IMG/VR virus record: IMGVR_UViG_3300026521_000161
Location: 32,001-96,000 of that record
Strand: one strand, 5' to 3'
DNA length: 64,000 bases
Source of the DNA: a virus
The notes below the pieces were generated by a model that saw nothing but the letters and a program-made list of their open reading frames with translations, was not told where the DNA came from and searched no databases. Positions 11,701 to 63,817 of the stretch are shown here, piece by piece. Position numbers and translations under genes: made by a program. Position 1 is the stretch's first letter. Each line of letters begins with the position of its first letter.

Positions 11701-12159
11701 GTATACTCTTTTATAAAAACTAGTTAATAGAGATTTATTTTCATCAATAAGTTTAATAATCTCGATAGGTAGTTGTCTACCAAATAAAATCCTCTCCATC
11801 ATACCTCTATTATTAAATAGGTGCATGAATTTAGAATACATAAGAGATCTGAATAATGATTCAAATAACCCATATTCAACTGTTATCTTTTCGTTTAACT
11901 CTTTAACTAAAGCTTTAGCTAAGATAGAAATAACAATTTTAAATTTATTACTATCTCTAAAATCATCTCTACCATAATCAACATCAGCTTTATCTACTAA
12001 ATAAGTAGCAATAACTAACGTCATTAATTTACGTTGGTCTTCTGTAACCACATCTATGTTAGGGAACGCTCTAACTAATTTAGCAAGAACATCATCTAGC
12101 AACTCTACTGACTCAGCCATATTATCTGGCTCCATATTTACACCGTTTATTAAAATCAC
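11698..12159 (-). CDS. Hypothetical protein
   Basis: 153-aa ORF overlapping the stop of the upstream gene. Confidence 0.55.
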   Translation of the reverse strand: MILINGVNMEPDNMAESVELLDDVLAKLVRAFPNIDVVTEDQRKLMTLVIATYLVDKADVDYGRDDFRDSNKFKIVISILAKALVKELNEKITVEYGLFESLFRSLMYSKFMHLFNNRGMMERILFGRQLPIEIIKLIDENKSLLTSFYKRVY

Positions 12160-13616
12160 GACAATTCCTTTAATTTAAATTTCTCTTGCATTATGTAAAG
12201 TTCATTTTCTTGCAAGTTTTCTGTAAGAAAATTTATATCATCTATTTTGTTATAGTCTAAATCTCTACTAGGTTCTAACATACTATCGACGACACTTATC
12301 TTCTCTTCTGTTTGTTTAACTAGATCTTTGACAAGATCTAATTGCCTCATTATATTATCTTTACCTATCTCACCAGCATCTGTTTTTCTTAACTCTCTTA
12401 TAAGTTCTAATTTTATCTGTTTTAATCTTCTCTGTATATTATCTTTTTTAACCATAGTACCTGGGTCGTTAAGTACTAATCTACTAAATACATCACTTAT
12501 AAATTTAGATAACATAGCGAAGAAGTAAGAGATTAACCTTACAGTAATATATGTTAAAAATATCATTAACCCTAAAACACTAAATAGTACAGTAACCACA
12601 ACAGCAGCTAATAAAGAAAATACGGTTAAGAACGTTCCTTTATTATTTGCATCATATACTCTTCCATCTTTAGAAACACCTATATCTCTATCACCTACTT
12701 TAACTATCATAGAAGCTAATAAATCACCTATACCAAATCTAGTAGCAAATTGATCAGATAGCCTTTCATAATCTAATACTATAGTTGTATTTGTTTTACT
12801 TACTCTATAAGTTTTTAATATAAAACTATCTAATGTTTCTAATGTTTTAACAGGAGTAGAGAAGTCTGTTTTAACGTCTATAGTTGTTTTATCTATCGCT
12901 ATCTTAATAGCATCTATAGGTTCTTTAGAACCGCTAAAACGCTCCTTTAAAAAAACATCAGCTAAAGTTTTCGTTGCGTTAGTAGTTGATGTCATGTATT
13001 CTAATCTAGTAAAAATAACACCCACCTGTTTTAATAATAACGCAGCTACTTCATCTGGCTCTAACCCAGCCATTTTAGCAGATAAAAAATTTATGTTAAT
13101 AACAAACTTTGATCCCTCTAAACCATTTATCCTAGCATTTTCTAAATCAATAGTTATACCATCATTATCTAGCGCGTTCTTGATATCGTTAAGTATCTTA
13201 TATAACTTCTCTTCTCTACTATTTTTAATAACTTTATTTAAGATATCTTTACTTTTAGGAAATAAATCAGACATACTATTCATAGCTACATTAAGTAACT
13301 TATAATTTAAAGAGGGCATGATTACCCTAGATAGATCATCTAACTCTCTACGCGTGTTCTCTACAATAATACCAACACCAAATCTTTTAGATAGAATATC
13401 ACTTATATTATCTAGGTTCTTTTTATACATACTATCTTTAACGATTCGTTTATATTTATCATATACTTTCATATGCCTATTTCTATCTAAATCCATCATA
13501 GTTACATTATCCATTCTTAGATTATAGATGTTAAATATATTATTAACCTCTCTAGTTAGCCTAATAACTAGTTCTAAATCTCGCTGTGTTTCTATTACTT
13601 CATTACCTACTAACAT
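12156..13616 (-). CDS. Virion membrane-anchored zincin-like head protein with degenerate HExxH (phiKZ gp86-like position)
   Basis: VGNE site at the N-terminus. 'EVAALLLKQVG' and 'ERLSDQFATRFGIG' align with the HExxH and E..AD.F..R/K.G.G motifs of 55651-59139. Long hydrophobic segment near residues 330-370. Confidence 0.6.
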   Translation of the reverse strand: MLVGNEVIETQRDLELVIRLTREVNNIFNIYNLRMDNVTMMDLDRNRHMKVYDKYKRIVKDSMYKKNLDNISDILSKRFGVGIIVENTRRELDDLSRVIMPSLNYKLLNVAMNSMSDLFPKSKDILNKVIKNSREEKLYKILNDIKNALDNDGITIDLENARINGLEGSKFVININFLSAKMAGLEPDEVAALLLKQVGVIFTRLEYMTSTTNATKTLADVFLKERFSGSKEPIDAIKIAIDKTTIDVKTDFSTPVKTLETLDSFILKTYRVSKTNTTIVLDYERLSDQFATRFGIGDLLASMIVKVGDRDIGVSKDGRVYDANNKGTFLTVFSLLAAVVVTVLFSVLGLMIFLTYITVRLISYFFAMLSKFISDVFSRLVLNDPGTMVKKDNIQRRLKQIKLELIRELRKTDAGEIGKDNIMRQLDLVKDLVKQTEEKISVVDSMLEPSRDLDYNKIDDINFLTENLQENELYIMQEKFKLKELS

Positions 13617-31227: not shown

Positions 31228-31821
31228 CTATTTACTTTCTACAATAAATTTAAATGTTTTACCATCATTGTCTATGATGATTTTAAGTGTTTCGTCATCA
31301 CTCATGAACGGTAATAATTCACTACCGTGTTGTGGTTTATAACCAGCATCATAAAGACTTATAAGTTTATCACTTATAGTTTCTTTAACTGGTTCAATAA
31401 TTTCAGGTTCAGGGACTCTTTCTCTGGATCTAGGTTTATAATCTCTAGCAGAAGATCTATACTCTCTAGAACTCTCACGAGAGCTTCTACTACCACCTAT
31501 ACCTATAGAAGCAGAACTACTACCACCATATCTTTGCCCTCCTCTAGACGAACGTCTAGGTTCCTCATAAGAGGCACCAGCTCTGGACGGCATTCTTGGT
31601 GGTACGTCGTCGTAATAAGGATCTCTACCATATCCTCTATCTCTACCACCATAAGCAGGTTCTCTACCTACAGGTGGTCTACCAGCATCTAACGGCCTAC
31701 CCATATCATCACATTCCACCCAACGATCGTAATCGTCATATCTCCAAAATCGATTATAACGATCTACCCATACAACAGGTTGTTTGTATTCGTCCACTAG
31801 GAACGGTTCATAATCAGTCAT
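31228..31821 (-). CDS. Protein with a central R/G/S/Y-rich disordered region
   Basis: 197 aa; 'YGGRDRGYGRDPYY...RRSSRGGQRYGGSSS'; strong RBS and early-type promoter. Confidence 0.7.
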   Translation of the reverse strand: MTDYEPFLVDEYKQPVVWVDRYNRFWRYDDYDRWVECDDMGRPLDAGRPPVGREPAYGGRDRGYGRDPYYDDVPPRMPSRAGASYEEPRRSSRGGQRYGGSSSASIGIGGSRSSRESSREYRSSARDYKPRSRERVPEPEIIEPVKETISDKLISLYDAGYKPQHGSELLPFMSDDETLKIIIDNDGKTFKFIVESK

Positions 31822-31924: not shown

Positions 31925-34327
31925 TTATTCTATTTTGTCTGTTGGTTCTTCAGGTTCATCACCATCTTCTGGAGTTTCATCCACATTACCTTCAGTAGAT
32001 TCATCTTCATTAACTTCTGGAGTTTCTGAACCACCGTCATCTATGTTATCATCATTATCAAATTCGTTATCTTCTTCCTCTTCTTCTATTTCACCGTTAC
32101 CTATTTTATCTCTACGTTTATCGAACTTAGATACCATTTTCTCATTCTCTTTAAGGAACGGTATGATAATCGCATCTAAACTTTTACCAAATACGTTAAA
32201 ATCAGTTAACAAGTTAAACATAGGTTTACCGTCCTCATCTAACGTAAACATCTTAGAGAAATCAGGTAAAACATTATTTTCATCTATATATCTTCTAAGT
32301 AACGTATGTTTAATTAAACCCTTAAGATCATCTAAGTCATCACCTATAGTACCTAAATAATTAGATGGTATTAAATCACTACTAAATAGTTTATCTATAA
32401 CGTTATCTAATAACTCTGTATATTTATCTACCATATCAGCAACATTAGTTTCCTCTGTCACTTCTGGCTTAGGCAATGTTATTTGTATGCTATCTATAAC
32501 TCTAGTTATCATATATTCAACGATATCGTCGTCACTAGCTTTCTTAAGAGCTTCTTTATTAACATCATTGTTATTGTTAACTAAGAATCTTTTCATCTTA
32601 CTATTAAGCATATCTGATAAAGCGCTACGTAACATACTCTTGAATTTACCGTCGACTTTTAACTTCTTCTGTATATCTTTTGTTAAAAGTTTTTCATATT
32701 TAGATTGTAATTTAAGTATGCGTTTTCTTAATAGTATATTATTAGCAATAATGGTTGTAGCGAATTCTGGACTATATCCGTTATCTATCATTTCTGGAGT
32801 TAAGTATAAACTAGTTATGATAAGTTTATCTATATCTTCTTTAAGGGTTTCATCTATTGGGTTTATCTCATTAGCTTTTTCTTCTATATCTATATTTACA
32901 TCTGGTAATCCAGGATGTTTAAAGTTAAAACTAAATCCTAATTTATGAACCCAATCAGTTAGATCATCAACATTTAAGATACCTATAGGCATACTTATCT
33001 GTCTGTTCCTAACTATCTCGGCCATGATGGCTTCCATAGATTTTTTATATTCTGGATCATCTGGATCTAAGTCCACTTTAACATCTGTAGTAGTTACACT
33101 ACTTTTTATATATGATAACATCTTAGTAAAAACTAACATAGCACGCATGCTCATTAATACAGACAATCTTTCTAATAAACTCTCACCCATACCATTTTCT
33201 CTAAAATTAATAGCATAGTAACTAACAAGATTAGTAGGTAAAAATAAAATGTCTATAGGTGTTTTAGAGATGATGCTATCTGCCATATCTAACACTATAT
33301 CGTCGTCTAACTCGAACTGTAAATCACTAAAGTCTTTATAAGGACTATTATCTAAGTAACCTTTTAACTTCGTTTTAATAAGTACATCTCTTAATCCGTC
33401 TAGTCCCTCTATAGTAGGGGCATCTTGTGTCATAGATTTAAGACTATTATTAACCTTAGCTATTAGTCCGTCTGAACTTGTAGGGTTACTACTCTTTCCT
33501 TGTTTCTTTTTCTTATTTTTTAAAAGAACAAAATACCCATAGTGTTTACTAGGGTCTTCTTGGCTAGTTATAGGTATTATTTTGTTAGGACTCATCTTCT
33601 TGATTATTGGTTTATCGCTACTTATATCAGTGTCGTCCATTATACCGAAATGATCATCATGTATCATAAGAGCTTCTAAACCAGGACTAATGCTTTCGCC
33701 ACTTAGTGTATTATTAACTATGTAGTTAGCTTTTTTCTCATTGAGAATGTCTTCTGCTAATATAGATGGGTTAGAAGTAAACTTAAATATTTTATCTTTA
33801 TCTTCTTTTATGGAATCTATATAATCACCCTGTGACATAAGCAAACTTTCAACACCAACACTAATGTCACTTTTTATTGTTTTAAACATGTCACTTATAT
33901 TTTTAGGCGGTATATTAAGTTCTACATAAGCACCCTTCTTAAATAATGATTCCTCCACTATCTCATTTAACTTATCACTAAGACCATATGTGTTTTCTGC
34001 ATATGTATCTATCATACCACTTATTAGCGATTGTGCTTCAGTAGGTAATTTAAACCCACTTAGTTTATATGTTAAACCACCAGTTCCCATATCGTTAGGT
34101 GAAGTAACTAATGACGTAACAAGTTCTATAGCTAAATCTATATCTGGGAATATCTCCTGTATATTTTTAACTAAGTTTTCCTGTCCATATCCATGATCGG
34201 ATAACTTAACTAGTTTTTTAAAATCAACAGCTTCCACTGTTTTATTAATAGCAGTTGTTTTCTTAGCTATTTTAGGTAACAAACTTTCGTATTGCACGGG
34301 TTCTTTTATAGTTCTTGACATTTTCAT
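31925..34327 (-). CDS. Portal protein (phiKZ gp129-like)
   Basis: 800 aa with 'FPDIDLA..L..S..SPND', 'GMGESLLE' and 'PEMIDNGYSPEFAT' motifs, VGVES and PGLEA sites, and an acidic tail. Divergent from a gp128-like gene. Confidence 0.75.
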   Translation of the reverse strand: MKMSRTIKEPVQYESLLPKIAKKTTAINKTVEAVDFKKLVKLSDHGYGQENLVKNIQEIFPDIDLAIELVTSLVTSPNDMGTGGLTYKLSGFKLPTEAQSLISGMIDTYAENTYGLSDKLNEIVEESLFKKGAYVELNIPPKNISDMFKTIKSDISVGVESLLMSQGDYIDSIKEDKDKIFKFTSNPSILAEDILNEKKANYIVNNTLSGESISPGLEALMIHDDHFGIMDDTDISSDKPIIKKMSPNKIIPITSQEDPSKHYGYFVLLKNKKKKQGKSSNPTSSDGLIAKVNNSLKSMTQDAPTIEGLDGLRDVLIKTKLKGYLDNSPYKDFSDLQFELDDDIVLDMADSIISKTPIDILFLPTNLVSYYAINFRENGMGESLLERLSVLMSMRAMLVFTKMLSYIKSSVTTTDVKVDLDPDDPEYKKSMEAIMAEIVRNRQISMPIGILNVDDLTDWVHKLGFSFNFKHPGLPDVNIDIEEKANEINPIDETLKEDIDKLIITSLYLTPEMIDNGYSPEFATTIIANNILLRKRILKLQSKYEKLLTKDIQKKLKVDGKFKSMLRSALSDMLNSKMKRFLVNNNNDVNKEALKKASDDDIVEYMITRVIDSIQITLPKPEVTEETNVADMVDKYTELLDNVIDKLFSSDLIPSNYLGTIGDDLDDLKGLIKHTLLRRYIDENNVLPDFSKMFTLDEDGKPMFNLLTDFNVFGKSLDAIIIPFLKENEKMVSKFDKRRDKIGNGEIEEEEEDNEFDNDDNIDDGGSETPEVNEDESTEGNVDETPEDGDEPEEPTDKIE

Positions 34328-43101: not shown

Positions 43102-45231
43102 ATGAACGCAAATATTGTTAACGCTACTCCGCAGATTATCCAGTTAGGTGCTAAAGACATGTCTATGAAACCGACTCCTCCTAAGGAGATCGTGATTCCT
43201 ACACATTTACCACTTATTTTTGGATTCGCTTCTGCAGGGCCAGCTACAAAAGAGCTCGTTGATGGAGCTAGACTAATTGGTCTCTATGGTGAAGAGACTT
43301 TCGATAGAAGTAAACCTTACTTTAATCATGGTGCTAGAATGGCTGAACTTATGTCAGCGGCAGGAAATGCTATGATGTTTACTAGAATCATTCCTAGTGA
43401 TAATGATACTATCGCTAACTTTACATTATATTTAGATGTACTAAATGATGATGTAGATGTTCTTAAAAGAAATGATGATGGTTCTATCTACTACGATGAA
43501 AATGGTGACCCAGAAGTTGTAGAGACTGTTAAAGGTTATAAACTTAAAGTTATCGCTGAATTCAACGATGATGATGATGAAGATACACCTTTTGGCATCA
43601 AAAAATCAAAAACAGGTTATATGAAAGATGGTGATGATAACTCATCTACTATGTATCCTATCTATGAGCAACGTGCTGCTTATAAAGGTAGTCCATATAA
43701 TAACGTAGGTATCGCGATCGGCCTTCCTACTAACGATGACTTACAACAAGCGTATAAAGAAGGTAACCTTTCATTACCATATGAGTTCTCTTTATATAAA
43801 CGTGCTGATGAAGATAGTACAGGTGTTAAAGTAGCATCACTTGCTGGTAACAAATCACAACAGTTTATCTTAGCTAGAGAAGCTAAAGATCCTGTTACAA
43901 ATATGAGAGTTGACTTAGAGTCAGTTATGGGTAATTGGTATAACTTAACTAGTCCATTACGTGATCTAGTTTATCCTAAAGTTAGTGCTCCGTACATTTA
44001 TGAAGATAACCTTAACCTTATTGCTGATAAAGTTATGGAAGTTGAAGCAAGTTATGTTAACGCTGATGTAGAAACTAAATCAGGCGCTACAGTAAATACT
44101 TCTGCATGGATGGATTATATTCCTGGTGTTGCTGCTAGTAAACAAGCTAAGATCTCTAACTTATTTACAGCTATGTCTACTAAGCGTACTCCTAACTTCA
44201 CATTCATCATTGATGAAGATGCTGATGTTACAGAAGATAACCAAGAACAAGTGTTCTTATCTAGTACTAACCCTATTTACTTCAAAAACGGTAAAGACGG
44301 TACTCTATCTGAAGAAGAGTTCGAAGCAGGTGTTGCTAGATGGATGGATAAATATGTAGATAATAATTCAGAAGTTATCGATACAGCTATCAACCTTGAG
44401 AGTGCGTTATGGGATTCTGGTTTTACTTTACCTACAAAAGAAAAACTTGTTAATTTTATTTCACTTCGTAAGGATACTTTCTTAGGTCTTTCTACTAGAG
44501 TAGATAACCTTGGTGACAAATATGAAGATCTTATCACACAGCGTGCTATCGGTCTTAACTTAAAAGCTAGATTAGGTTTAGCGCCTGAGTCTACTTTCTT
44601 CGGTACTCCTGTTACAAGAGGTATTGTTGTTGTTGGTTCTGGTAAAGATAGTTTAGATCCGTCTAACAGACGTTATGGATTACTACATGATATCGCATAT
44701 AAAACAGCGAGAATGATGGGCGGTAAGGAATGGAAGAAATCTCTTTTATTCGATAGAGGTGAAAGAAACACTATCGTTAACTATAGTGATATTGAACCAG
44801 CTTCAGTTCCAAATGGTATCAAAGCTGACTTATGGAATATTGGTCTTAACTGGCCTATGCCTATGGATAGAACAACTTACTATTTCCCAGCTATGCAATC
44901 TGTTTATGATAACGATTCATCGTCTATGAACAACATCTTTATGGCTTTAGCATTAACTACAACTGTTAAAGTTGCTGATGCTGCAGGTAGAAAATTTTCA
45001 GGTAACATCGAGTTATCTCCTAGCCAATTAACAGAGGCAGTTGAGAACTATATGAATGGTGAACTTAAAGGTAAATTTGCTGGCGTTATCACTGCTGTTG
45101 CTAAAGCAAGCATCACAGATTATGATGCGGCTAGAGGTTACTCATTCTCAGTAGTAACTAAACTTGGTGGTGATATCATGACTACAGTTATGTCTCACTA
45201 CACTGAGATCTGGAACAAAGCAGATATGTAA
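43102..45231 (+). CDS. Contractile tail sheath protein (phiKZ gp29-like)
   Basis: 'IVNATP....GAKD.S', 'PTHLPL', 'YGEETFD...PYFNH', 'WDSGF.L.TK' and 'PES.FFGTP..RG' motifs; highly-expressed codon usage. Confidence 0.88.
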   Translation: MNANIVNATPQIIQLGAKDMSMKPTPPKEIVIPTHLPLIFGFASAGPATKELVDGARLIGLYGEETFDRSKPYFNHGARMAELMSAAGNAMMFTRIIPSDNDTIANFTLYLDVLNDDVDVLKRNDDGSIYYDENGDPEVVETVKGYKLKVIAEFNDDDDEDTPFGIKKSKTGYMKDGDDNSSTMYPIYEQRAAYKGSPYNNVGIAIGLPTNDDLQQAYKEGNLSLPYEFSLYKRADEDSTGVKVASLAGNKSQQFILAREAKDPVTNMRVDLESVMGNWYNLTSPLRDLVYPKVSAPYIYEDNLNLIADKVMEVEASYVNADVETKSGATVNTSAWMDYIPGVAASKQAKISNLFTAMSTKRTPNFTFIIDEDADVTEDNQEQVFLSSTNPIYFKNGKDGTLSEEEFEAGVARWMDKYVDNNSEVIDTAINLESALWDSGFTLPTKEKLVNFISLRKDTFLGLSTRVDNLGDKYEDLITQRAIGLNLKARLGLAPESTFFGTPVTRGIVVVGSGKDSLDPSNRRYGLLHDIAYKTARMMGGKEWKKSLLFDRGERNTIVNYSDIEPASVPNGIKADLWNIGLNWPMPMDRTTYYFPAMQSVYDNDSSSMNNIFMALALTTTVKVADAAGRKFSGNIELSPSQLTEAVENYMNGELKGKFAGVITAVAKASITDYDAARGYSFSVVTKLGGDIMTTVMSHYTEIWNKADM

Positions 45232-46314: not shown

Positions 46315-46764
46315 CTAAACGTCTAACAGTGCGTCTGTTAGTTTTTTCTCTAGAGCTTTACGTCTAGATTTTGGATAGTTGAACTCTTTCGAATTCACGA
46401 ATGTTTTTACAACTGATTTTGTAAGTGTTTCACCAGGTTTACCAGGCATAGGCATAGTTTTGCTACGTAGTGCGTGTGTTGTGATGTTCGTAGATTTATT
46501 TGTTCCGAATGGTACAACAACTTCAGCTTCTTTAAGATCTGCATCACCTTTGAACTCTTCTAGTGCTTTATCGCCAGATACTTCGATAGCTGCATGTAAG
46601 AACTGCTCTTTAAATTTACTAACTTTTTCTAGAGTAGCTTTTTCGATACCAGCTTTTTCTGCTTCTGCTACGAAGTAGTTCTCATCTTTAACTGTGATAG
46701 TTGCGATACCGTTTTCTTTACTTACTTCAAACTCTGGACTTAATGTTAATTCTTGTGCTGCCAT
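46315..46764 (-). CDS. Highly expressed hypothetical (probably early) protein
   Basis: 149 aa, AAGGAG RBS, early-type promoter motif, biased codons. Confidence 0.7.
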   Translation of the reverse strand: MAAQELTLSPEFEVSKENGIATITVKDENYFVAEAEKAGIEKATLEKVSKFKEQFLHAAIEVSGDKALEEFKGDADLKEAEVVVPFGTNKSTNITTHALRSKTMPMPGKPGETLTKSVVKTFVNSKEFNYPKSRRKALEKKLTDALLDV

Positions 46765-53640: not shown

Positions 53641-54663
53641 TTATAATGCCATACCGAATTCATCTAGCTCCGCATCATCAAGAGCATCGAATGAATCGTA
53701 CTTAGCATTTTTGATAGCTTCGATTCTTTCTAGTTCCTCTTTAAGATAAGCCACTTCGGCATTAAGAACACCTCTACGTTGCGTTAAGAATAACGGATAC
53801 GTACCGAATCTATCATAATTCGTAGTGATAGTACCAGTTTTACTTTGTTGTGGAGTGATAGTCATATTGATATCTTTAGTATCCTCACTGATGATAGTTC
53901 TAACTAAGATCACTGACTCATCCACCAACTCACCAACAGCAACACCTAAGCTATAAATACCGGGAGCTGTTCTAAAAGATTGATACTTATCAGGTCTAAA
54001 AAAGTTGATCATATCCTGATGATCTATGTTCTGAATAGAACCTGAGATGAACATGCTTATAACAGATAACATTTTAAAAATCTTTTCATTAACCTCTGCT
54101 TCTGTTTTAGGACTTGTAACACCACCTATAGTATTACTATAGTAAATATTACTAACAGCTTTTTTAGATTTAAGAGCAACACCCTGGATAGATGTTATGG
54201 TGTTGATTGTATTGTTTAATGCTAAGTAACTACTACTATCACCAACAGTAACAGTTATAACAGTATAGTCTTGTTCTAACATAGCTTTAAGCAATAGAAC
54301 ACCAGCACTAGAACCTGTACCACCAGAACCACTAGATACGATAACATAGTAATCATTTAGATTCTTACTAACACCATTATCTAAGAACTCTCTAACGGAC
54401 TTATTCATGTGTGCTATGTTCTCTTTTGACTTTCTTTCACCACCTGTACCATCTAATCCTTTACTACTAGCTGAACTAGAAGTGATTTTAAAGAATCTAT
54501 CTTCGTACTCAGGATAAGCTTGGATAGTCTTTTCTGTACTATCTATGAATGAACATGTCACATCACTGAACCCTTCACCAAGTTCTTTTAATCTAGGATA
54601 TATAGAAGCTACTACATTAGTCCCACACCCACCTACTGCTATCAAATTTAATTTACCAGTCAT
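53641..54663 (-). CDS. phuZ: PhuZ tubulin-like spindle protein
   Basis: 'AVGGCGTN', tubulin signature 'SGSGGTGS', T7 loop 'NIDHQD', and acidic C-terminal tail 'ELDEFGMAL'. Confidence 0.92.
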   Translation of the reverse strand: MTGKLNLIAVGGCGTNVVASIYPRLKELGEGFSDVTCSFIDSTEKTIQAYPEYEDRFFKITSSSASSKGLDGTGGERKSKENIAHMNKSVREFLDNGVSKNLNDYYVIVSSGSGGTGSSAGVLLLKAMLEQDYTVITVTVGDSSSYLALNNTINTITSIQGVALKSKKAVSNIYYSNTIGGVTSPKTEAEVNEKIFKMLSVISMFISGSIQNIDHQDMINFFRPDKYQSFRTAPGIYSLGVAVGELVDESVILVRTIISEDTKDINMTITPQQSKTGTITTNYDRFGTYPLFLTQRRGVLNAEVAYLKEELERIEAIKNAKYDSFDALDDAELDEFGMAL

Positions 54664-54745: not shown

Positions 54746-55582
54746 CTAAGCTTGTCCGAATAAACCTTTTATAACTTTCTTTTGTAAATCACTATCTTTT
54801 TCTCTTTTAATAATATCCCCTAATAACTTAGCTTCAGCTAACGTGTTTACACCTATTAGGTTTATACCATTTCTTATAAGCGTAACTCTAGTAGTTATAT
54901 CATTACTCTTACTAGCGACTTCTAACTCTTTTAGCAAACTAGATATTTTCATCTCTTTAGCTACATTAATACTAACTTCAGCATACATATCACCTATAGA
55001 CTGTAAGTCTTTAAACCCTTTAAAAGTATTAGGATTGGATAGGTTGTTTTTTATAAAGCCTATTTCAAATGTTAATACATCATCTAGACTATTACCTTTC
55101 TTTAATGTTTCAACGATACCTTTATCGCTTAATAATATAGGGTACGCTATACCTTCATGTTCCACTCTTATAGGAGCTCTTGTTTTATCATTAAAGACTG
55201 CTGTTATACCAACACCATTGACTCTAACAGAACTATGATCTATTTCAGAAGTTATAAGAGGAGTTTTTTTAGATATCATAAGCATACCAGGTATACTGTT
55301 AACATTAAACTTGTAAGCTTCATAATCTTTACCTTTATTGTTATTAAGAACTTTTCTTAATTTGTCTAAGTTAGCTTTTATAGCTTTCATTATTTTATCT
55401 AATACAGATTTAGTAGCACCATCTTTTTTAACTATAGATTCGTATAGATCATAAAGATGTTTGTTTACTTTATCAACTTCTTTGTTAGAGCTATCTAGTA
55501 TAGCATCAAATTGTTTATGGAACTGTTCTGTTATATCATCTAGTTCTTTCCCGGTAGTAACCTTCTCTAGTTTAATACCCAT
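54746..55582 (-). CDS. Hypothetical protein
   Basis: 278 aa, AAGGA RBS. Confidence 0.6.
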   Translation of the reverse strand: MGIKLEKVTTGKELDDITEQFHKQFDAILDSSNKEVDKVNKHLYDLYESIVKKDGATKSVLDKIMKAIKANLDKLRKVLNNNKGKDYEAYKFNVNSIPGMLMISKKTPLITSEIDHSSVRVNGVGITAVFNDKTRAPIRVEHEGIAYPILLSDKGIVETLKKGNSLDDVLTFEIGFIKNNLSNPNTFKGFKDLQSIGDMYAEVSINVAKEMKISSLLKELEVASKSNDITTRVTLIRNGINLIGVNTLAEAKLLGDIIKREKDSDLQKKVIKGLFGQA

Positions 55583-55650: not shown

Positions 55651-58600
55651 TTATTTTTTAACTAAATATTTTTTATACTTATTTAAATCTATAAGTGTGT
55701 CTACTCTTAAACCTAATGAGATATCATTAACTATAGGATCAAACATTATTATCTTACCTTTATTATTAACGCCCCAATTACCGCTATGTAAGTCTAATCT
55801 AACTCGACCTTTAACATGTTCATCTTTTAAAACATCTTTAATAAGGTCTAATTGTTCAAATATCTCTTTAGGTATCTTAACTTCATTACTGCTCTTTAAT
55901 TTATTCTTTAGGATATCTATAACTTCATTTATATCTATTTCACCATATTCTTTTAGAACCTCTTCTAACTCATCATATACTTTATGTATAACATCAACCT
56001 TCTTATCATCTTTAAAAGACTCTAAGTAATCCATCTCTACTACATATAGAGCTTTTTTATATTTACCGATAAGCACAACGTCTATGCCGTAAACGTTTAT
56101 TAAAGGGTTTCTTAGTATCCATAAAACTTTATCAGAATCTATAGTAACAGTAACGACTGTTTTATCACTAGGTTCATCGTCACTATCTATTTCAAAAATA
56201 CTAAAACCTGTATAACCTTCTCTTATAGTAACTGGTACAGGAGTTTTTAAAAGATACTTATGATTTATATCTTCTATTTTAACTCCATATTTAAGAAGTT
56301 TCTCATTAAGTTTATCTAAATCTTTAGAATTCAATAACTCAGTAACACGTTTACTCCATAGATCGAACTCTTTATAATAAATAGTATTAGCTGGTTCTTC
56401 TATAAGATTATGGTCAGACATAGCCTCATTGCCATTAGCTAGTTCGTTATACATAAGTTTATGGTAGAACATATCGTTATTTATTAATTTATCTAAATTA
56501 TCCACTATCCTAGCATCTAATGTTATATCTTTACCAGCATTGCCATTAGGATTAAACATAGATAATAATAAACTACCATAACCCATATCCTCTATTTCTT
56601 TCTTAGTTTTCTTAACTTCTGTTATAGTATTTAATATCTCTTTAACTTCTTCTTTACTTAAATCACTCTCTCTTAGAACTTTTATAAGGGATCTAACTAC
56701 AGAATCAAATCTTTCTGGTAGTTTCTCATATGGAAAATATTTACCAGCTATTAGTCTATAAATAGAAGATAAAGCGTAAGCTAGGAATATGAATTTAAGG
56801 TTAAGCATTAACACCTTACCAAATAAGCTTAACCTACCACTAAACGCCAACATGGTAGCTATCGATAATGATATATACGTTATTAATGGTAGCATTATGA
56901 AAGCTTTGTTGTGTATCTTAAATGTAATTAATCTATCTAACCCACTGACTAACTCTTTACCCATACCCATTCTAGTAGAAAAATCATCAGCAACGATTTC
57001 ACTATCAGTCATAAATGACTTAACACTACCTATCCTATTATCTTTAGTAGCTACATCTGTTAATAGATGCATGCCGAAACTAGGATCAAAGACTCTTATA
57101 GCACTGGTGATAGTTAGTAATCCATTAGCTAACATTTGTTTAAATATTCCAATACTCCATCCATGTAACGTTAGCATCTCTTCAGCATCTTTTTTATATT
57201 CTGATTTATACTCTATAACATGTTTCTCTTTAGACTTCTCTCTGTTAACAAATGAATCTAATAGCTGCGTATTACTAACCACTAATCTTTTCATAGATTC
57301 TATATACGTAAACAGATGTCCTATTTCATGTAAGTAAATAGCGGTCATCTCCTCTGGAGTTAAGTCCAATCCAGTTATAGTAGTACCGAACATATCCCTA
57401 CCATATTCTATAAAAACTATACTTTTATGTTTATCTTTCTTCATACCGTGGATATATGCTTTCTCTAAATCAACGACAAAGTTATTACCGTTCTTAAAGT
57501 CTTTCAGTATTTCTCTATTGTTGTGTATATAAAGTAAGTAACCTTTTATATTAAAAGTTGATTTACTATAGTATTTTCTCCAATCGGATATACCTTTTTG
57601 GTCTATAACGTTAAAAGGAACACAAGCCCAACCATGACCAAAGCCGACAGCAGGTAATGCCATGATACTTAAACCAAATCTTTTATATGTTATCTCTTCT
57701 AACTCTTCCGATATAGACATAAATGTAGCTACGTTTCTAATTATAGAATTATCTTTGACCTTAGCGAAGAATGATATTAATTCATTAACGACAGGATCCT
57801 TTTTACCCATATAGTTTATAGACTCTAATCCAACACTAAATCTAGCTTCTTGTATGTATAGCTTAGTGTTTTCTAGTTCATTAAGTTTGCTAGCTAGTTC
57901 ATCTTCTGTATTCAGGTTACCTACTAAATATTCAGACATAAGCCCTATAAGAACTTTACCGTGCGCTGAGTTATCTATATCCTCTAAATCTTTTTCTACC
58001 TGTTCGTATTGGGCTAATAATAATTTCTTATCTTTTTTATTCATATCCGTTAATCTTAAAACTTCTACCATAGATGTTTTAATATGTTCGACACGTTGTT
58101 TAAGACTACCGTGCTCGTCATTGATAGGGTTTCGTTTATTATGCATATATAGTAATTTACTTATACTGTTAATAGTTAATGCTATTTCTAACGCGATAGC
58201 CGCCATTATAACGATACCACCAGGTAATAACAATGATAACAACAAGGCTCTAACGGCCATACCTAATATAGACATAAGTACAATGACAGCACTAGCGTTA
58301 CTAAAAGATAACTGGTTAACCTTATTAAGTTTAACTAATGCTCTACTTAACTCTTCCCCGTACCCAAATTTAACAGTGAAATTATCTGCTTCTATCTCTG
58401 GATTGGTTTCTCCTGTACCATGACCACCTAATGGTATAGACATAAGGTCCTTTTTAACTTTTTCATATATCATGCTTAGCCCATTTGTTTCAGAGCTTGG
58501 GTTTTTACTTATACCTAATTCAGAGGTAGTTTCTGTTAATGGTTTATTACGTAAGAAATTACTTAATAATATGGATGTAGTTACGGCTGATCTACTATAC

Positions 58601-59139
58601 AATTCTAATAGCGTAAATACATGACCTATTTCATGTAAGATTATAGCTACGAACTCACTTTTAGTTAAATCCCTAACCATTCTTAGAGATATAAATAGAG
58701 GTACATAGTAATCATCTGGCAGGTTTAGGAATTTAGCATCCTTTTTATCCAGTATTAGAATATTACTATCTAACCATCTGTTAAAATCCTTTATCTGTTT
58801 TATACCATGTCTGACATCTTTACCTCTGGTAGACTTAAAAGTCGTTAGACTTATTTGGTCAGGATTAAATATAGGTATAACTGCAAATGTGTTACTATTT
58901 CTTAATAATATATTTATACCAAATCTTTCATAAGACTTATCTTTAAACTCTTTCTCTATTTGTAAAAAAGAAAAATCTAATTCTTTCTTATTAATAGTTT
59001 TCTTTTCGTAGTATAGAGAATGTAACTTCTCTAATCTATCATATGTACTTTCTATAACCTTTATAAAAGAATCATTAGCTTGCGTGCCTATCATCGACTC
59101 AACACCCTCTTTTATTCCTAAATCTATTTTAAACATCAT
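55651..59139 (-). CDS. Putative virion polyprotein: two HExxH membrane metallopeptidase-like domains plus a C-terminal kinase-like domain
   Basis: 'AIILHEIGH..EIEADNF' and 'AIYLHEIGH..EIVADDF', each followed by hydrophobic helices. C-terminal 'DLHSGNW...IMFDP'. EGVES, VGLES and NGNEA sit at the domain boundaries. Confidence 0.7.
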   Translation of the reverse strand: MMFKIDLGIKEGVESMIGTQANDSFIKVIESTYDRLEKLHSLYYEKKTINKKELDFSFLQIEKEFKDKSYERFGINILLRNSNTFAVIPIFNPDQISLTTFKSTRGKDVRHGIKQIKDFNRWLDSNILILDKKDAKFLNLPDDYYVPLFISLRMVRDLTKSEFVAIILHEIGHVFTLLELYSRSAVTTSILLSNFLRNKPLTETTSELGISKNPSSETNGLSMIYEKVKKDLMSIPLGGHGTGETNPEIEADNFTVKFGYGEELSRALVKLNKVNQLSFSNASAVIVLMSILGMAVRALLLSLLLPGGIVIMAAIALEIALTINSISKLLYMHNKRNPINDEHGSLKQRVEHIKTSMVEVLRLTDMNKKDKKLLLAQYEQVEKDLEDIDNSAHGKVLIGLMSEYLVGNLNTEDELASKLNELENTKLYIQEARFSVGLESINYMGKKDPVVNELISFFAKVKDNSIIRNVATFMSISEELEEITYKRFGLSIMALPAVGFGHGWACVPFNVIDQKGISDWRKYYSKSTFNIKGYLLYIHNNREILKDFKNGNNFVVDLEKAYIHGMKKDKHKSIVFIEYGRDMFGTTITGLDLTPEEMTAIYLHEIGHLFTYIESMKRLVVSNTQLLDSFVNREKSKEKHVIEYKSEYKKDAEEMLTLHGWSIGIFKQMLANGLLTITSAIRVFDPSFGMHLLTDVATKDNRIGSVKSFMTDSEIVADDFSTRMGMGKELVSGLDRLITFKIHNKAFIMLPLITYISLSIATMLAFSGRLSLFGKVLMLNLKFIFLAYALSSIYRLIAGKYFPYEKLPERFDSVVRSLIKVLRESDLSKEEVKEILNTITEVKKTKKEIEDMGYGSLLLSMFNPNGNAGKDITLDARIVDNLDKLINNDMFYHKLMYNELANGNEAMSDHNLIEEPANTIYYKEFDLWSKRVTELLNSKDLDKLNEKLLKYGVKIEDINHKYLLKTPVPVTIREGYTGFSIFEIDSDDEPSDKTVVTVTIDSDKVLWILRNPLINVYGIDVVLIGKYKKALYVVEMDYLESFKDDKKVDVIHKVYDELEEVLKEYGEIDINEVIDILKNKLKSSNEVKIPKEIFEQLDLIKDVLKDEHVKGRVRLDLHSGNWGVNNKGKIIMFDPIVNDISLGLRVDTLIDLNKYKKYLVKK

Positions 59140-59168: not shown

Positions 59169-59196
59169 AGTATAGTAGGGATATCCCTACTATACT
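59169..59196 (-). terminator. Intrinsic terminator after the recJ operon
   Basis: Perfect 28-nt palindrome plus a U-run. Confidence 0.65.
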
Positions 59197-59392
59197 ATCT
59201 TAAACCGTTATTTAGTTTATACGCGACGCACTCAGCTATTTCTGCTAATAACTTTTCCTCATGTTTTATATCCTCTCCATTAAGACTCTTTTCCTCCATT
59301 CGTTTAAGTACTCTTTTTCTAAGAACTTTAAGTTCTTTTTTAGTATTACTACATACTGGTTCGTCCATAACATACTCCTTATACGATGTCAT
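59195..59392 (-). CDS. Small hypothetical protein
   Basis: 65 aa; may start at the internal ATG after AAGGAG. Confidence 0.45.
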   Translation of the reverse strand: MTSYKEYVMDEPVCSNTKKELKVLRKRVLKRMEEKSLNGEDIKHEEKLLAEIAECVAYKLNNGLR

Positions 59393-59627
59393 TAATAGCG
59401 TCCATTAAGTTACTTAACTTACGCTCTTTTTCTATTAGGTCATTGTATCTATCCCTACTTATAACATTAGCTTTAAATGTTAAATAAGTAGAACCGTTAG
59501 TAGTATAATGGGATAGGAAATCTAAATTATCACTAGTTATACCTAACCCATGTTTCTCCTCAACAACTTCTAATAACTCACTGCCTTTATCACTTTTAAG
59601 TTCTATATCTATAGCTATCATGATCAC
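59379..59627 (-). CDS. Small hypothetical protein
   Basis: 82 aa, AGGAG RBS. Confidence 0.5.
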   Translation of the reverse strand: MIMIAIDIELKSDKGSELLEVVEEKHGLGITSDNLDFLSHYTTNGSTYLTFKANVISRDRYNDLIEKERKLSNLMDAINDIV

Positions 59628-59629
59628 TC

Positions 59630-61126
59630 CTATTTAAAGACTATCTTAGTTGGTTGTAATAATATCTTGTTTTGGCTTCTAAAGCTATTGACATTAAAGC
59701 TATATGTCATGCGTATGAACTTAGTTCTTTTAAGCTCATTCTCTATGTGTTCAAGTTCATTCTTTTTAATAGAATAAAACACACTCATATTACTTTCTGT
59801 ATTAGGATCAAATTTAACTTTAAAGCTTAGTAAGATATTACTGCGTTTATATATCCTATATGATTCTATATAAAAATCACTACAGAACATCGGTTTCTCA
59901 TACCCTATACCATAAGGACCAGCATTTATAACATCGAACATAGTTAATAATAATTTTTTAGTACTAAAGATATAATCTTCCACATAAGTATTTTTTATCT
60001 CTACCACATCATATTTACTAACCTCTTCCTTAAGAAGGTCATAAAACTCTTTAAGGTTAGGTTTTATCTTAACGCCGATAGCTTTTTTATGTCCACCATG
60101 TTTAAGTATGATATCGCTCTTATTAGCTACTTCTGTTAATACATCTTTAAGATTAAGTCCATCCTCTTGGCTACGACCTGACCCTATATAAACATAACCA
60201 TCAAATCTCTTTTTCTTAGTAAATACGATAACTATTTTATAATTATCGTTATACATAACATTATTAGCGATGATGCCCTGTACTCCATCACTATCATCAA
60301 CAACCATAACTTTTATCTTACCGTCTGTATATTCTTCTTTCTTACCAACATCAACTGCTTTACTCTGGATATCCTTACGATTTTTATTTATCTCTTTTAT
60401 ATCTTCATAAAGTAGTTCAGCTATATCTTCTGTTGGCGACATAAGTAACTCATAACTCAGCCTAGCGTCAGCTATCCTACCAGGTGAGTTTAGCATAGGT
60501 ATAACGTCATACCCTAACGTAGTTTCGTCCATAAGATACGTCTTAGCATTTTTTCTTATAGTAAGTGACCAAAATGGATCATGCTTTATATTAAGACTAT
60601 TTAAATCCGATAAAGTTTTTATAAGTAACTTTCTATTAACAAAGTTCTTAAGATCCATACAATCAGATATAAGAGTTAATCCTATATATGTTATAAGATA
60701 ATACATTTTATCTAATTTAGACTTGTCAGGATTGCCGTTCGATAAGAAAGCATGTGCTAATGTAAAATAAACCACACCAGTACCCGTCATATCTGATAAT
60801 ATATTGTTATCATAACGTTGTGGATTGATGAATGCTGTGGCTGACGTTGGTGCTGTGTCCTGATCGAATAAATGGTGATCAGTTACTATAAATGGTATAC
60901 TTGTTTCAGACATGATAGTTTCTATATTAAGCTTATCATTAGAGCCATGGTCACTAGTTATAATAAGACCAATATCGTCATCATTTTTACAAATATTTAT
61001 TATCATATTTGTAAGAGCTGAGTTGATACCGTTACCGTCAGAACGTTTATTAACAACGACTTCTATGTTATCATATTCGTAAACATCTAAAAAAAATTTA
61101 TGAGCGATGGCGGCACTCGTGATGCC
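59630..61126 (-). CDS. recJ: RecJ-like DHH/DHHA1 ssDNA exonuclease, exon 2
   Basis: Begins GITSAAI; contains 'TSDHGS', 'VTDHH', 'INP', 'LNSPGR', 'GSGRS' and 'GGHKKAIG'. Confidence 0.88.
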   Translation of the reverse strand, partial: GITSAAIAHKFFLDVYEYDNIEVVVNKRSDGNGINSALTNMIINICKNDDDIGLIITSDHGSNDKLNIETIMSETSIPFIVTDHHLFDQDTAPTSATAFINPQRYDNNILSDMTGTGVVYFTLAHAFLSNGNPDKSKLDKMYYLITYIGLTLISDCMDLKNFVNRKLLIKTLSDLNSLNIKHDPFWSLTIRKNAKTYLMDETTLGYDVIPMLNSPGRIADARLSYELLMSPTEDIAELLYEDIKEINKNRKDIQSKAVDVGKKEEYTDGKIKVMVVDDSDGVQGIIANNVMYNDNYKIVIVFTKKKRFDGYVYIGSGRSQEDGLNLKDVLTEVANKSDIILKHGGHKKAIGVKIKPNLKEFYDLLKEEVSKYDVVEIKNTYVEDYIFSTKKLLLTMFDVINAGPYGIGYEKPMFCSDFYIESYRIYKRSNILLSFKVKFDPNTESNMSVFYSIKKNELEHIENELKRTKFIRMTYSFNVNSFRSQNKILLQPTKIVFK

Positions 61127-62933
61127 CGTTGTTTTCATATGTATCGCTAGTACACACAGTTCTCAGTATCTCTACATGAACTTCCCATCCATTACAGATG
61201 GATACAAGACTATATCATTATCCTAAAATATTTTAGGATACGAAACGTTTCGATTTAAGGACTGCCATCCACCCGCTCGGGCCCTACTCTACTCGCTTTA
61301 ACTACATATGTAGCCATGGGGTTATTACACTACCCATGTGATTAACTAAGTCTGTCGCCAACTTAGTATAGCTTTCGATAGTCGTTGAACTCACACACTC
61401 TAGTCATACTAGATCACTCTCGTGGTTTAAGGTGCTTCGCTGCGTCGATTCCGCCAGGATATAACGTTTTCACCATGCCTCTAGTTGCTCTATTACGCCT
61501 GAGGTATTACAGTATGTTTCCACCTGTAAGTGGTAGTTATATCTTTTTCAGCGGTCCCCGCAATTAGTTTCGTTTGCTTATAGGATTACTCCTATAAGGG
61601 ACTTACTTAAAATGTAAGCTACAATTTTCTTTCTCTTTAAAAGTAATCTTAGTTTTTTTATCTATATAAGAATATATTGTTCTATAATCCTTATTGAAAA
61701 ATTTTCTTAATGAATTTATAGACGTAAACTCTTCGACAATAACGTCATCTTTATCCTTAACCATTATGACTTTAGGTTTGTTAATAGGTGTTTTATTAGA
61801 CGGTTCTCTCCACTTAGCGACTGTAAATTTACGCACTAACCATCTATCTGTTAGTAAATAATTATCACATCTGCGTAGGTATAAAGTTAATGTACTTTTA
61901 GGGACACCTGTAATGTTAGATGCGTCACTTATGCTTTTAACAGTATAAATAACGTTATTAATAACATCGCGCACTTGGACGTGTTTAAGAACTATTTTGC
62001 GTTTTTTAATATGTAATATTTTATATCCATTGTTACGGCAAAATTTTTCTATTGTACTCTTTTTACTGTTTTGTGAGTCAAAGAATTGCTTAAATGTTTT
62101 ATATTTAAATAACTCTCCGTTTTTCTCAAGTACTAAGCTAAAGCTTCTAGTATCATCTCTCTCGTAAGCCCATCCAGTGAACGATCTTTCCCTATATAAC
62201 TCAAATCTACCATTACTACCAGACCATACTTTACCGAAATACATAGGCGCTCTTTGGGTGTCTATTTTACTTCGACCTATTATTTCACTAGCTTCGCTAG
62301 AGGACATAGCGGTTGAGGTAACTCCAGTATCTATATCACGTATTAAAAATAGACCTCTACTACTAACAATTGTTTTTGTTACATTTAAAGTAGATGAAAC
62401 CCATCTAAGATTATCGGCATGGTAATTAGTCTTGTCGTCATCAATATGATCGACTATGTTATTAATAACATAATCATCATTTTCGCACCACGCCAGTGCT
62501 ACTAATTTATGTACGCCTATATTATAATAATCCCCTGTTAATAGCTTAACGCGTATGTTGTAATAACCAGATTTCGTTAACTCGTAACCACGATTAATTA
62601 TTTTACGAGCTACGCAATCTACTAACACGCCATCTTTACTAATAGCTATATTTGTAAAGAATGGTACGAAATTATAAATAACGCCATCTACATAGACGAA
62701 TGGTCTATTAACAAATACTGGCATTTTATCTGGTAGTTTAGAGACACCATGTACTTTGTGTCTAGTTAGAGTGTATGATACATCATTTTTATTGTCTGCA
62801 AGAGTTGTATAATCACGTTGCATTATATTCTTTTCTAAGATTATTTTTCTTTTTTCGTTACACATACTAATCCTTACTATTTGTATATGTAACAAACTAC
62901 AAAGTAAATTGTTTCTACATTGTTAGTATGTTA
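61127..62933 (-). mobile_element. Group I intron (probably IA) in recJ, carrying an HNH homing endonuclease
   Basis: 5' exon ends in U (GAT|TAACAT...) and the intron ends in G (...ACAACG|GGC). Core elements on the minus strand: P AATTGCGGGGA, Q AATCGACGCAGC, R TCAACGACTA, S GATATAGTC; P3 AACGAAAC/GTTTCGT. Splicing restores DYDVD|GITS in frame. Confidence 0.9.
61603..62865 (-). CDS. Intron-encoded HNH homing endonuclease with NUMOD-like DNA-binding repeats
   Basis: 'VHKLVALAW....IVDHIDDDKTNYHADNLRWVS'; ATG 62865 follows AAGGA; repeated helix-turn-helix-like modules ('SISDASNITGVPKSTL', 'FTSINSLRKFF'). Confidence 0.88.
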   Translation of the reverse strand: MCNEKRKIILEKNIMQRDYTTLADNKNDVSYTLTRHKVHGVSKLPDKMPVFVNRPFVYVDGVIYNFVPFFTNIAISKDGVLVDCVARKIINRGYELTKSGYYNIRVKLLTGDYYNIGVHKLVALAWCENDDYVINNIVDHIDDDKTNYHADNLRWVSSTLNVTKTIVSSRGLFLIRDIDTGVTSTAMSSSEASEIIGRSKIDTQRAPMYFGKVWSGSNGRFELYRERSFTGWAYERDDTRSFSLVLEKNGELFKYKTFKQFFDSQNSKKSTIEKFCRNNGYKILHIKKRKIVLKHVQVRDVINNVIYTVKSISDASNITGVPKSTLTLYLRRCDNYLLTDRWLVRKFTVAKWREPSNKTPINKPKVIMVKDKDDVIVEEFTSINSLRKFFNKDYRTIYSYIDKKTKITFKEKENCSLHFK

Positions 62934-63287
62934 ATCCACATCATAGTCGCTAACCAATAATATTTTTTTATTGTTAACTATGGCTTCATTTATAGCACTC
63001 GTAGAATTGACTACATGTGGTAACCATTTTTCTATAAAATTCTCATTTATGATATCACTAAGTTTAGTATTAAAATAGTTTTTTATGGTATCTAAATCTT
63101 TATACCTATTAGCGACTATTTTTTTAGTTATATCTGAATTAAAATATCTATTAAGATATGTTAATGTTTCTGGGTCCTGTTTCGTTATGACAATATTATC
63201 ATTACTAAGACTACTTATAATTTCTCTCAATGGCTTTTCTTCACCATTTGGAAGTTTAACTTCTGTCATTTTCATTCCTTCTTTCAT
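62934..63287 (-). CDS. recJ: RecJ-like exonuclease, exon 1
   Basis: Ends 'KKILLVSDYDVD', the first part of DHH motif I, immediately before the intron's TAA. Confidence 0.85.
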
Positions 63288-63322: not shown

Positions 63323-63817
63323 TCAATCTTCATCCGATAATTTATCATAAGCGTATTGCAATATGAATAGTGAATCGTATGTCCATTCACTTCGTTCTGA
63401 TCTTATACCGTGCTTATCGAAGAACTCTTTGATTCTTCTAAGATTACTAGTATTAACTATTTCGTTGTTTATATAGTCTAATATATCGATTTTGAACGAT
63501 ATCATGATGGTGTTTACCAATGTAACCTCATCCATACTAAAATTAGATATATCGTGTAAAGTTAGGTTAGGTATATTATTTACAAAATCATTTATGTTAA
63601 CACTACCAAACTTAACAACACATATAGAATACGTACTTTTATTACGTATAACTCCCAACAATGTTTCTTCACCTATATCAATTTTTAATGCATCATCATG
63701 TTGATTCTCTACTATTAACATAACTCTACCATCATTTCTTTTAAAACACACAGGATCCCTTTTAGACTCAACTCTTCTAGCTCTCTCAAATACTAAAATA
63801 CCACGTCTATTACTCAT
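63323..63817 (-). CDS. Hypothetical (probably early) protein
   Basis: 164 aa; early-type promoter motif upstream. Confidence 0.6.
   Translation of the reverse strand: MSNRRGILVFERARRVESKRDPVCFKRNDGRVMLIVENQHDDALKIDIGEETLLGVIRNKSTYSICVVKFGSVNINDFVNNIPNLTLHDISNFSMDEVTLVNTIMISFKIDILDYINNEIVNTSNLRRIKEFFDKHGIRSERSEWTYDSLFILQYAYDKLSDED

Follow-up and report, generated by a model that had tools for sequence, protein, structure and literature searches.

A jumbo-phage open reading frame joining two M48-like head-protein modules and a T7-kinase-like module at candidate prohead-protease sites

A single open reading frame (ORF) of a phiKZ-like nucleus-forming jumbo phage probably encodes a capsid-targeted precursor from which the prohead protease releases two zincin metallopeptidases and a kinase. 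The ORF (P0001, 1162 amino acids [aa]) lies on the minus strand of a 106,141-bp contig, IMG/VR record IMGVR_UViG_3300026521_000161, of which we analyzed a window of 64,000 nucleotides (C1:32001-96000); coordinates below are those of the window. An earlier reading made from the letters alone (here, the sequence-only reading) had divided the ORF into three modules, each placed right after a G-x-E tripeptide, and had proposed that ancestral genes were fused into one packaged precursor that is cut during head maturation. The ORF proved to be real and open for all 1162 codons, with the three modules as described, and the motifs quoted for it were all found where they had been placed. We infer the packaging and cutting of the polyprotein, its ejection into the host, its insertion into membranes, and the activities and targets of the enzymes from the features that follow.

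55651..59139, minus strand: whole ORF P0001, 1162 aa, propeptide plus zincin 1, zincin 2, and kinase
59098..59139, minus strand: putative N-terminal propeptide, residues 1 to 14, ending in G-V-E; candidate capsid-targeting leader
57823..59097, minus strand: module 1, residues 15 to 439, about 48 kDa, M48-like zincin of the gp84/gp45 family
58621..58635, minus strand: HEIGH zinc-binding motif of module 1, residues 169 to 173, invariant in the family alignments
58384..58398, minus strand: E-x-x-A-D (EIEAD) of module 1, residues 248 to 252, candidate third zinc ligand
58159..58311, minus strand: hydrophobic helix hairpin of module 1, residues 277 to 327 (Kyte-Doolittle, 19-residue window, peak 2.55)
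57823..57831, minus strand: joint 1/2, G-L-E, residues 437 to 439, followed by S-I-N-Y
56425..57822, minus strand: module 2, residues 440 to 905, about 53 kDa, second zincin of the gp84/gp45 family
57316..57330, minus strand: HEIGH motif of module 2, residues 604 to 608
56986..57000, minus strand: E-x-x-A-D (EIVAD) of module 2, residues 714 to 718
56758..56904, minus strand: hydrophobic helix hairpin of module 2, residues 746 to 794 (Kyte-Doolittle)
56425..56433, minus strand: joint 2/3, G-N-E, residues 903 to 905, followed by A-M-S
55654..56424, minus strand: module 3, residues 906 to 1162, about 30 kDa, minimal T7-kinase-like domain
55777..55794, minus strand: catalytic-loop motif D-L-H-S-G-N, residues 1116 to 1121
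55732..55740, minus strand: D-P-I, residues 1134 to 1136, counterpart of the DPV that replaces DFG in T7 kinase
56128..56130, minus strand: Lys 1004 (K99 of module 3), candidate ATP-anchoring lysine by inferred role

The distribution of G-x-E in the ORF and its conservation among relatives are the first line of evidence. The ORF contains five such tripeptides, three of which mark the N-terminal site (residues 12 to 14) and the module borders (residues 437 to 439 and 903 to 905); the remaining two (at residues 261 and 727) lie in a homologous, conserved G-x-G-x-E-L helix in each peptidase module. In AlphaFold2 (AF2) models, the joints were low-confidence coil at the model ends, whereas the internal G-x-E tripeptides were in helix. 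The relatives comprised about 20 divergent metagenomic fused proteins, all from uncultured phages, and those of full length were 29 to 67% identical to the ORF. Across 21 fused relatives, G-x-E occurred at 0.005 per residue, so that about 0.13 would be expected in any 25 residues, and yet an N-terminal G-x-E was present in 19 of the 21 and a G-x-E preceded the kinase in 19 of 20, A-x-E taking its place in the other one. The leader G-x-E was followed by Ser in all nine relatives having a leader, and joint 1/2 took the form of G-x-E followed by Ser in 9 of 11. At the kinase joint the register shifts and the neighboring linker residues vary, and in the fused layouts with a kinase, G-x-E is retained at the N terminus and at all joints down to about 25% identity. 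The claim that G-x-E stands right before each module thus held for the N-terminal site and both joints, and the sites are kept among relatives. The further claim, that a Met follows each G-x-E within a few residues, failed, as such a Met is not conserved among relatives; for the same reason, we rejected the post-joint Met residues as relic start codons. Internal-start translation of modules 2 and 3 was likewise rejected, there being no AAGGAG-type site at normal spacing.

The fused proteins occurred in four layouts, namely, peptidase-peptidase-kinase (about 1150 aa), peptidase-kinase (about 680 aa), peptidase-peptidase, and peptidase-peptidase-kinase followed by an extra module. The two peptidase-peptidase relatives, P0011 and P0012, end exactly at joint 2/3, and the fourth layout has a further G-x-E ahead of its extra module. 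That extra module, found in P0009 (1376 aa) and P0024 (1358 aa), is a C-terminal module of about 200 aa without a Pfam match. Short C-terminal tails opening with G-x-E, absent from the window protein, were seen in P0003, P0005, P0006, and P0020. Relatives had been expected to encode the modules as separate genes, and they do: both peptidases alone and kinases alone (about 260 aa) exist, ending at the joints, with the C-terminal end of the stand-alone peptidases lying a few residues short of the joint position. Because the stand-alone peptidases stop where the joints lie, we take the modules to be whole former genes.

The second line of evidence is homology to a family of head proteins with a mapped cut site. 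In tblastn searches, the peptidase modules matched single genes of about 410 to 450 aa in SPN3US-like, Erwinia, Ralstonia, Burkholderia, Serratia, and Xanthomonas jumbo phages, many of them annotated as virion structural proteins. The SPN3US member is gp45 (E values of 2e-15 and 9e-10), and phiKZ gp84, annotated "structural head protein," matched the family profile with an E value of 9e-63. Transposon data for phiKZ carry two counts for PHIKZ084, 0 insertions in one file and 9 to 10 in another, from which we drew no conclusion on whether the gene is essential. SPN3US gp45 is a head protein by mass spectrometry, with a 20-residue leader that the prohead protease gp245 removes at ASE-20 and that the SPN3US authors likened to the capsid-targeting sequences of T4 (PMC5694885, PMC10052503). 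The resemblance of the window modules to the family extends over the whole module and includes HExxH, ExxAD, the hydrophobic hairpin, and a short leader whose x-x-E end precedes a conserved S/A-I start, such a leader being present in most single-module members. The window leader reads G-V-E (residues 12 to 14) followed by S-M-I-G, against ASE-20 followed by S-I-G-F in gp45, and S-I-N-Y after joint 1/2 also resembles the mature gp45 end S-I-G-F. In architecture they differ: known members are single proteins, and here two tandem copies are joined to a kinase.

Because P3 of the cut site is Gly here but Ala in SPN3US (and Ser in phiKZ gp84), we calibrated the motif by aligning proteins of the window phage with SPN3US proteins whose cut sites have been mapped (Table 2, PMC10052503). 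The SPN3US capsid site V-A-T-E (ATE-130) aligned with V-G-N-E in the window-phage capsid protein and with A-G-V-E in a related contig, both aligned sites preceding the same conserved A-F-D-G-Q start; the G-N-E tripeptide is therefore common to joint 2/3 and the capsid maturation site. A portal site aligned in the same way:

33848..33856, minus strand: G-V-E site of the portal protein, aligned with SPN3US portal ATE-161 (S-V-A-T-E/S-L in SPN3US, S-V-G-V-E/S-L here)

The preferences of gp245 for Val or Ala at P4 and for Ser at P1' were seen at the window-phage sites too. The [SAG]-x-E motif invoked by the sequence-only reading is present at the three sites, but it is less exact than the form of this lineage, which is G-x-E with Val or Ala at P4. 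The gp45 site ASE-20 and the aligned capsid and portal sites thus lend independent support, by alignment, to the idea of cleavage. A gp245-type prohead protease, with G-x-E in its own C-terminal part, was found in four of four related contigs with the peptidase-kinase layout (E values of 1e-28 to 3e-36). Elsewhere in the window, the minus-strand gene at 2348-3841 encodes a homolog of internal head proteins (phrog_2497; E value of 3e-5) whose five G-x-E tripeptides all fall within the first 180 residues, the other 317 having none; the cluster is reminiscent of SPN3US gp53 and gp54, whose long propeptides are cut several times.

We then considered what the modules would be once separated. Modules 1 and 2 are tandem paralogs, as had been claimed (BLASTP, 24% identity over about 400 aa; E value of 4e-20), and both matched phrog_2767, a profile of 442 positions, over profile positions 19 to 439 (E values of 2e-23 for module 1 and 1e-33 for module 2). 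Each has HEIGH, then ExxAD some 80 to 110 residues on, and a hydrophobic hairpin spanning about 50 residues; HExxH and ExxAD of both modules are invariant across the relatives and the stand-alone family alignments and align with the same motifs of Ste24p/ZMPSTE24. By Pfam M48 (PF01435), module 1 alone gave an E value of 0.01, and the relative P0009 (36% identical) scored 31.6 bits, above the cutoff of 20.3; 1 of 20 family members matched PF01435 at an E value of <0.01, and a precomputed annotation gave it for 8 of the 11 relatives listed. The AF2 model of module 2 had a predicted local distance difference test (pLDDT) score of 62.8, and when it was compared with 48,161 chains, ZMPSTE24 (6bh8_A) was the sole chain with a Z score of at least 8 (Z score of 8.5, root mean square deviation of 5.6, 145 residues aligned), Ste24p reaching 7.5. 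Foldseek on the same model returned nothing significant, with ZMPSTE24 at ranks 9, 15, and 20 only. The expectation of an M48-like zincin was thus supported for both modules by several lines taken together, namely, the motifs, the Ste24p/ZMPSTE24 alignment, the near-threshold Pfam score, the passing score of P0009, and a model of moderate quality with ZMPSTE24 as its best structural match. The hairpins suggest that the zincins act at a membrane.

The window also encodes a third, stand-alone paralog:

12156..13616, minus strand: P0013, 486 aa, with an N-terminal G-N-E leader and a hydrophobic hairpin

In this protein HExxH is gone, with K-Q-V-G-V in its place, and its orthologs of about 490 aa in the related contigs L040 and L041 have lost both His residues too. 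By its sequence, P0013 looks like a conserved pseudo-peptidase.

Module 3 matched the T7 0.7 kinase family phrog_15752 (E value of 1.8e-7), as did four of its relatives, and phrog_2828 (E value of 0.011), and its top cluster in the ESM Atlas carried PF27024 (Phage_T7_kinase) in 42% of members, with a score of 0.96. The AF2 model was a two-part structure with a pLDDT of 90.5 and a predicted template modeling score of 0.87. Kinase-like folds filled 49 of the top 50 Foldseek rows (among them APH(3')-IIIa, LicA, PknB, and mitogen-activated protein kinases), and in a comparison by VIA, kinases were found in most rows, with 124 to 150 residues aligned. By hhalign, D-L-H-S-G-N and D-P-I were placed over D-M-H-S-G-N and D-P-V of T7 gp0.7 (E value of 7e-5; probability of 64%), the confident alignment covering only about 30 columns. 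Together, these results upheld the prediction of a protein-kinase-like fold. Among 30 kinase relatives, the Asp of D-P-I was invariant, the Asp and Asn of the catalytic loop were nearly so, and Lys 1004 was the sole nearly invariant Lys of the N-lobe. Module 3 ends 28 residues past the DP motif and so is without the usual C-lobe helices; because the C-terminal shut-off/DNA-binding domain of the T7 kinase (T7K) type is absent as well, we classified it as T7K-like rather than as an ortholog of T7K. No match to module 3 was obtained by tblastn in 50,697 deposited phage genomes, even at an E value of 1, and phmmer against the PDB sequences gave chance matches only. A copy of Pfam without PF27024 returned nothing for module 3, three related kinase modules, or six stand-alone kinases. 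P0022 (4299 aa), which emerged from the kinase search, was discarded as a repeat-protein false positive.

On these grounds, the carrier would be a head protein of the gp84/gp45 type, here duplicated in tandem, which is an M48-like zincin and has a short leader at its N terminus, and the T7-kinase-like module would be a passenger on its C terminus. During head maturation, a prohead protease of the phiKZ/SPN3US type would cut after G-x-E at E14, E439, and E905, taking off the 14-residue leader and freeing inside the head the two hairpin-bearing zincins, of about 48 and 53 kDa, and the kinase of about 30 kDa. The freed proteins would exit the capsid together with the DNA. The kinase could be active ahead of any phage gene expression and, by analogy with T7 kinase, would phosphorylate host proteins, defense proteins included, and the zincins with their hairpins would act at the membrane. 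The simplest account of the origin of the ORF is that a head protein was duplicated and then acquired a kinase as passenger, with the prohead protease separating the pieces in the head. Such a fusion would solve the problem of packaging the kinase. The stand-alone kinases, which are without a G-x-E leader, are for that reason probably ordinary expressed proteins, as is T7K.

Several points weigh against this reading of a cut, packaged precursor. An N-terminal G-x-E is also present in nonvirion proteins, e.g., the nuclear shell protein, and the tripeptide alone is therefore not diagnostic. The contig is a partial genome (completeness of about 42% by CheckV), on which no prohead protease was found by tblastn when SPN3US gp245 and four related proteases served as queries; since the genome is partial, this result says nothing about absence of the enzyme. 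The structural scores are modest, with a best Z score of 5.5 and a template modeling score of about 0.3 for the kinase and, for the peptidase, a Z score of 8.5 that stands on a model with a pLDDT of 63; the whole ORF, at 20.0 bits, falls just below the PF01435 gathering cutoff of 20.3. Because a stand-alone paralog without HExxH is conserved, the gp84/gp45 family may also have a noncatalytic, structural role in the head, and the modules of the ORF may themselves be purely structural. Finally, every mapped cut in SPN3US except the protease's own removes an N-terminal propeptide, and cuts between retained domains are not reported there. This last point favors a protein that is packaged and loses its 14-residue leader alone, a three-domain chain of about 134 kDa remaining intact and the joint G-x-E tripeptides being relics or favored linkers. 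Joint 1/2 might indeed descend from a leader of module 2 itself, since the sequence that follows resembles the mature N terminus of gp45. The kinase joint, however, is not explained as a relic leader, because the stand-alone kinases have no such leader, and G-x-E or A-x-E precedes the kinase in all 20 fused proteins despite the shifting register and variable neighbors. With a further G-x-E ahead of the fourth module of P0009 and with joints in flexible coil, we consider an uncut chain unlikely.

The two hydrophobic hairpins would also suit a membrane-anchored intracellular enzyme that never enters the virion (e.g., one that remodels an envelope or vesicle and has a kinase tethered to it) and in which G-x-E has no role; the T7 kinase itself is an expressed early protein and is not packaged (PMC13645617), and nonvirion proteins with an N-terminal G-x-E exist. 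Nevertheless, gp45 and gp84, the orthologs of the zincin modules, both belong to the head, the mapped cleavage site of gp45 is the homolog of the leader site here, and an early-type promoter motif (described below) was not found upstream of the polyprotein gene, which we counted in favor of a virion protein. As a nonvirion role would also leave the conservation of the motif at every border unexplained, we regard it as distinctly improbable. A still slighter chance is given to cleavage at the joints by the zincin modules themselves in place of the prohead protease. HExxH and ExxAD are intact in both modules, and self-processing by metallopeptidase domains has been proposed for polyvalent proteins (PMC5512222). 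Against this, the motif at the joints is the same as that at the capsid and portal sites homologous to mapped prohead-protease sites, and the inactive stand-alone paralog keeps its N-terminal G-x-E. Specificity for Glu at P1 is not a known property of M48 enzymes. Cutting of a packaged precursor by the prohead protease remains the reading we favor. An extension of it, that the gp84/gp45 zincin is a general capsid-targeting carrier in the clade, to which cargo enzymes are joined through prohead-protease sites, that a T7K-like kinase injected in this way phosphorylates host proteins or defenses before phage transcription starts, and that the zincins remodel or insert into membrane around the DNA (the early infection vesicle), is put forward only tentatively.

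The ORF was compared with known systems. Iyer et al. (2021) described a conserved, uncharacterized zincin-like metallopeptidase of group 1 (phiKZ-group) jumbo phages (PMC7824862), which probably corresponds to the phrog_2767 family. Polyvalent proteins (Iyer, Burroughs, Anand, de Souza, and Aravind 2017, PMC5512222) are multienzyme phage polypeptides believed to enter the capsid and then the host along with the DNA; they often contain zincin-like metallopeptidases and, also commonly, kinases without a C-terminal subdomain but with the active site kept, and the kinase clade concerned is from (pro)phages of Verrucomicrobia/Bacteroidetes (PMC5512222). The ORF is like these in having at least two distinct enzyme domains in one chain, with delivery here suggested by the head location of orthologs. 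It differs in that polyvalent proteins occur mostly in MuF/portal contexts or in conjugation, with autoproteolysis proposed, whereas here a head protein conserved in nucleus-forming phages is the carrier and the prohead-protease motif stands at the joints. With T7 gp0.7 (T7K; PHROG 2828/15752; PF27024), module 3 shares D-x-H-S-G-N and D-P-[VI] in place of DFG, the replacement of DFG by DPV being known for the T7 kinase (PMC13645617). T7K is expressed early and has a C-terminal DNA-binding shut-off domain, whereas module 3 is without that domain and is fused behind head-protein modules; T7K homologs without a shut-off domain are present in other jumbo phages (PMC13645617). The internal proteins and Alt of T4 offer a parallel in that the prohead protease (gp21) takes off a short leader by cutting after Glu and head-packaged enzymes are injected with the DNA, but these are encoded by separate genes with a leader each, whereas here one leader would serve three modules. 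Neither a phage kinase packaged in virions nor a metallopeptidase of chimalliviruses came up in a literature search. The concept itself is of the polyvalent-protein kind and is already known; what is new is the gp84/gp45 carrier, the nucleus-forming lineage, the T7K-like cargo, and sites tied to mapped orthologous cuts.

The genes around the ORF are those of a phiKZ-like phage, and the gene for the major capsid protein is on the contig outside the window. The following features were placed in the window:

53641-54663: PhuZ tubulin, 1 kb downstream of the polyprotein gene
19805-21607: nuclear shell protein, by PHROGs match
31925-34327, minus strand: portal protein
43102-45231: tail sheath
59169..59196, minus strand: hairpin plus T-run, about 25 nucleotides (nt) 5' of the polyprotein start codon
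55620..55651, no strand assigned: two-way hairpin terminator at the 3' end of the polyprotein gene

The nuclear shell protein of phiKZ, used as a query against the contig, gave no match, and megablast of 14 kb against deposited phages gave none either. Genes of the peptidase-kinase layout again adjoin PhuZ. Between the polyprotein gene and PhuZ is an ORF of 278 aa (54746-55582, minus strand) with T-G-K-E near its N terminus and no PHROG match. The polyprotein gene is flanked on both sides by hairpin terminators, and two small ORFs (about 80 and 56 aa; 59197-59620, minus strand) lie between the 5' hairpin and recJ, their place being taken by a 124-aa ORF in the related contig L006. The gene 5' of the polyprotein (59630-63287, minus strand) encodes a RecJ-like DHH protein and is interrupted; the interruption contains an HNH endonuclease ORF (61603-62895; phrog_59) and fits an intron, and an intact RecJ-like gene of 610 aa was found at the same position in L006 (7203-9038) and L007 (8134-9966).

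An AT-rich palindromic motif of the form TATATTATTAATATAGTAC-N4-GTACTAA, located about 35 to 60 nt 5' of start codons, was common to several genes and is likely an early promoter. It was found upstream of PhuZ and about 10 other genes on the contig, including those at 24886-26514, 31228-31821, 46315-46764, and 63323-63817. Most structural genes are also without it and are often preceded instead by a hairpin plus T-run.

The proposal bears on the first minutes of infection, when a nucleus-forming phage has yet to build its protein shell and must protect itself. The T7 kinase disarms many defenses through promiscuous mass phosphorylation (PMC13645617), and having a kinase ready-made would help a phage through this interval. 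If the proposed processing is true, a prepackaged T7-type kinase would equip these phages with an injected early weapon of a new kind. The zincin with its membrane hairpin would offer a starting point for assigning a function to the conserved head protein gp84/gp45, of which the clade, judged by motif, keeps active and dead forms side by side. The layout of a carrier with cleavable cargo points to a rule, already used in nature, by which foreign proteins could be loaded into capsids of the phiKZ type.

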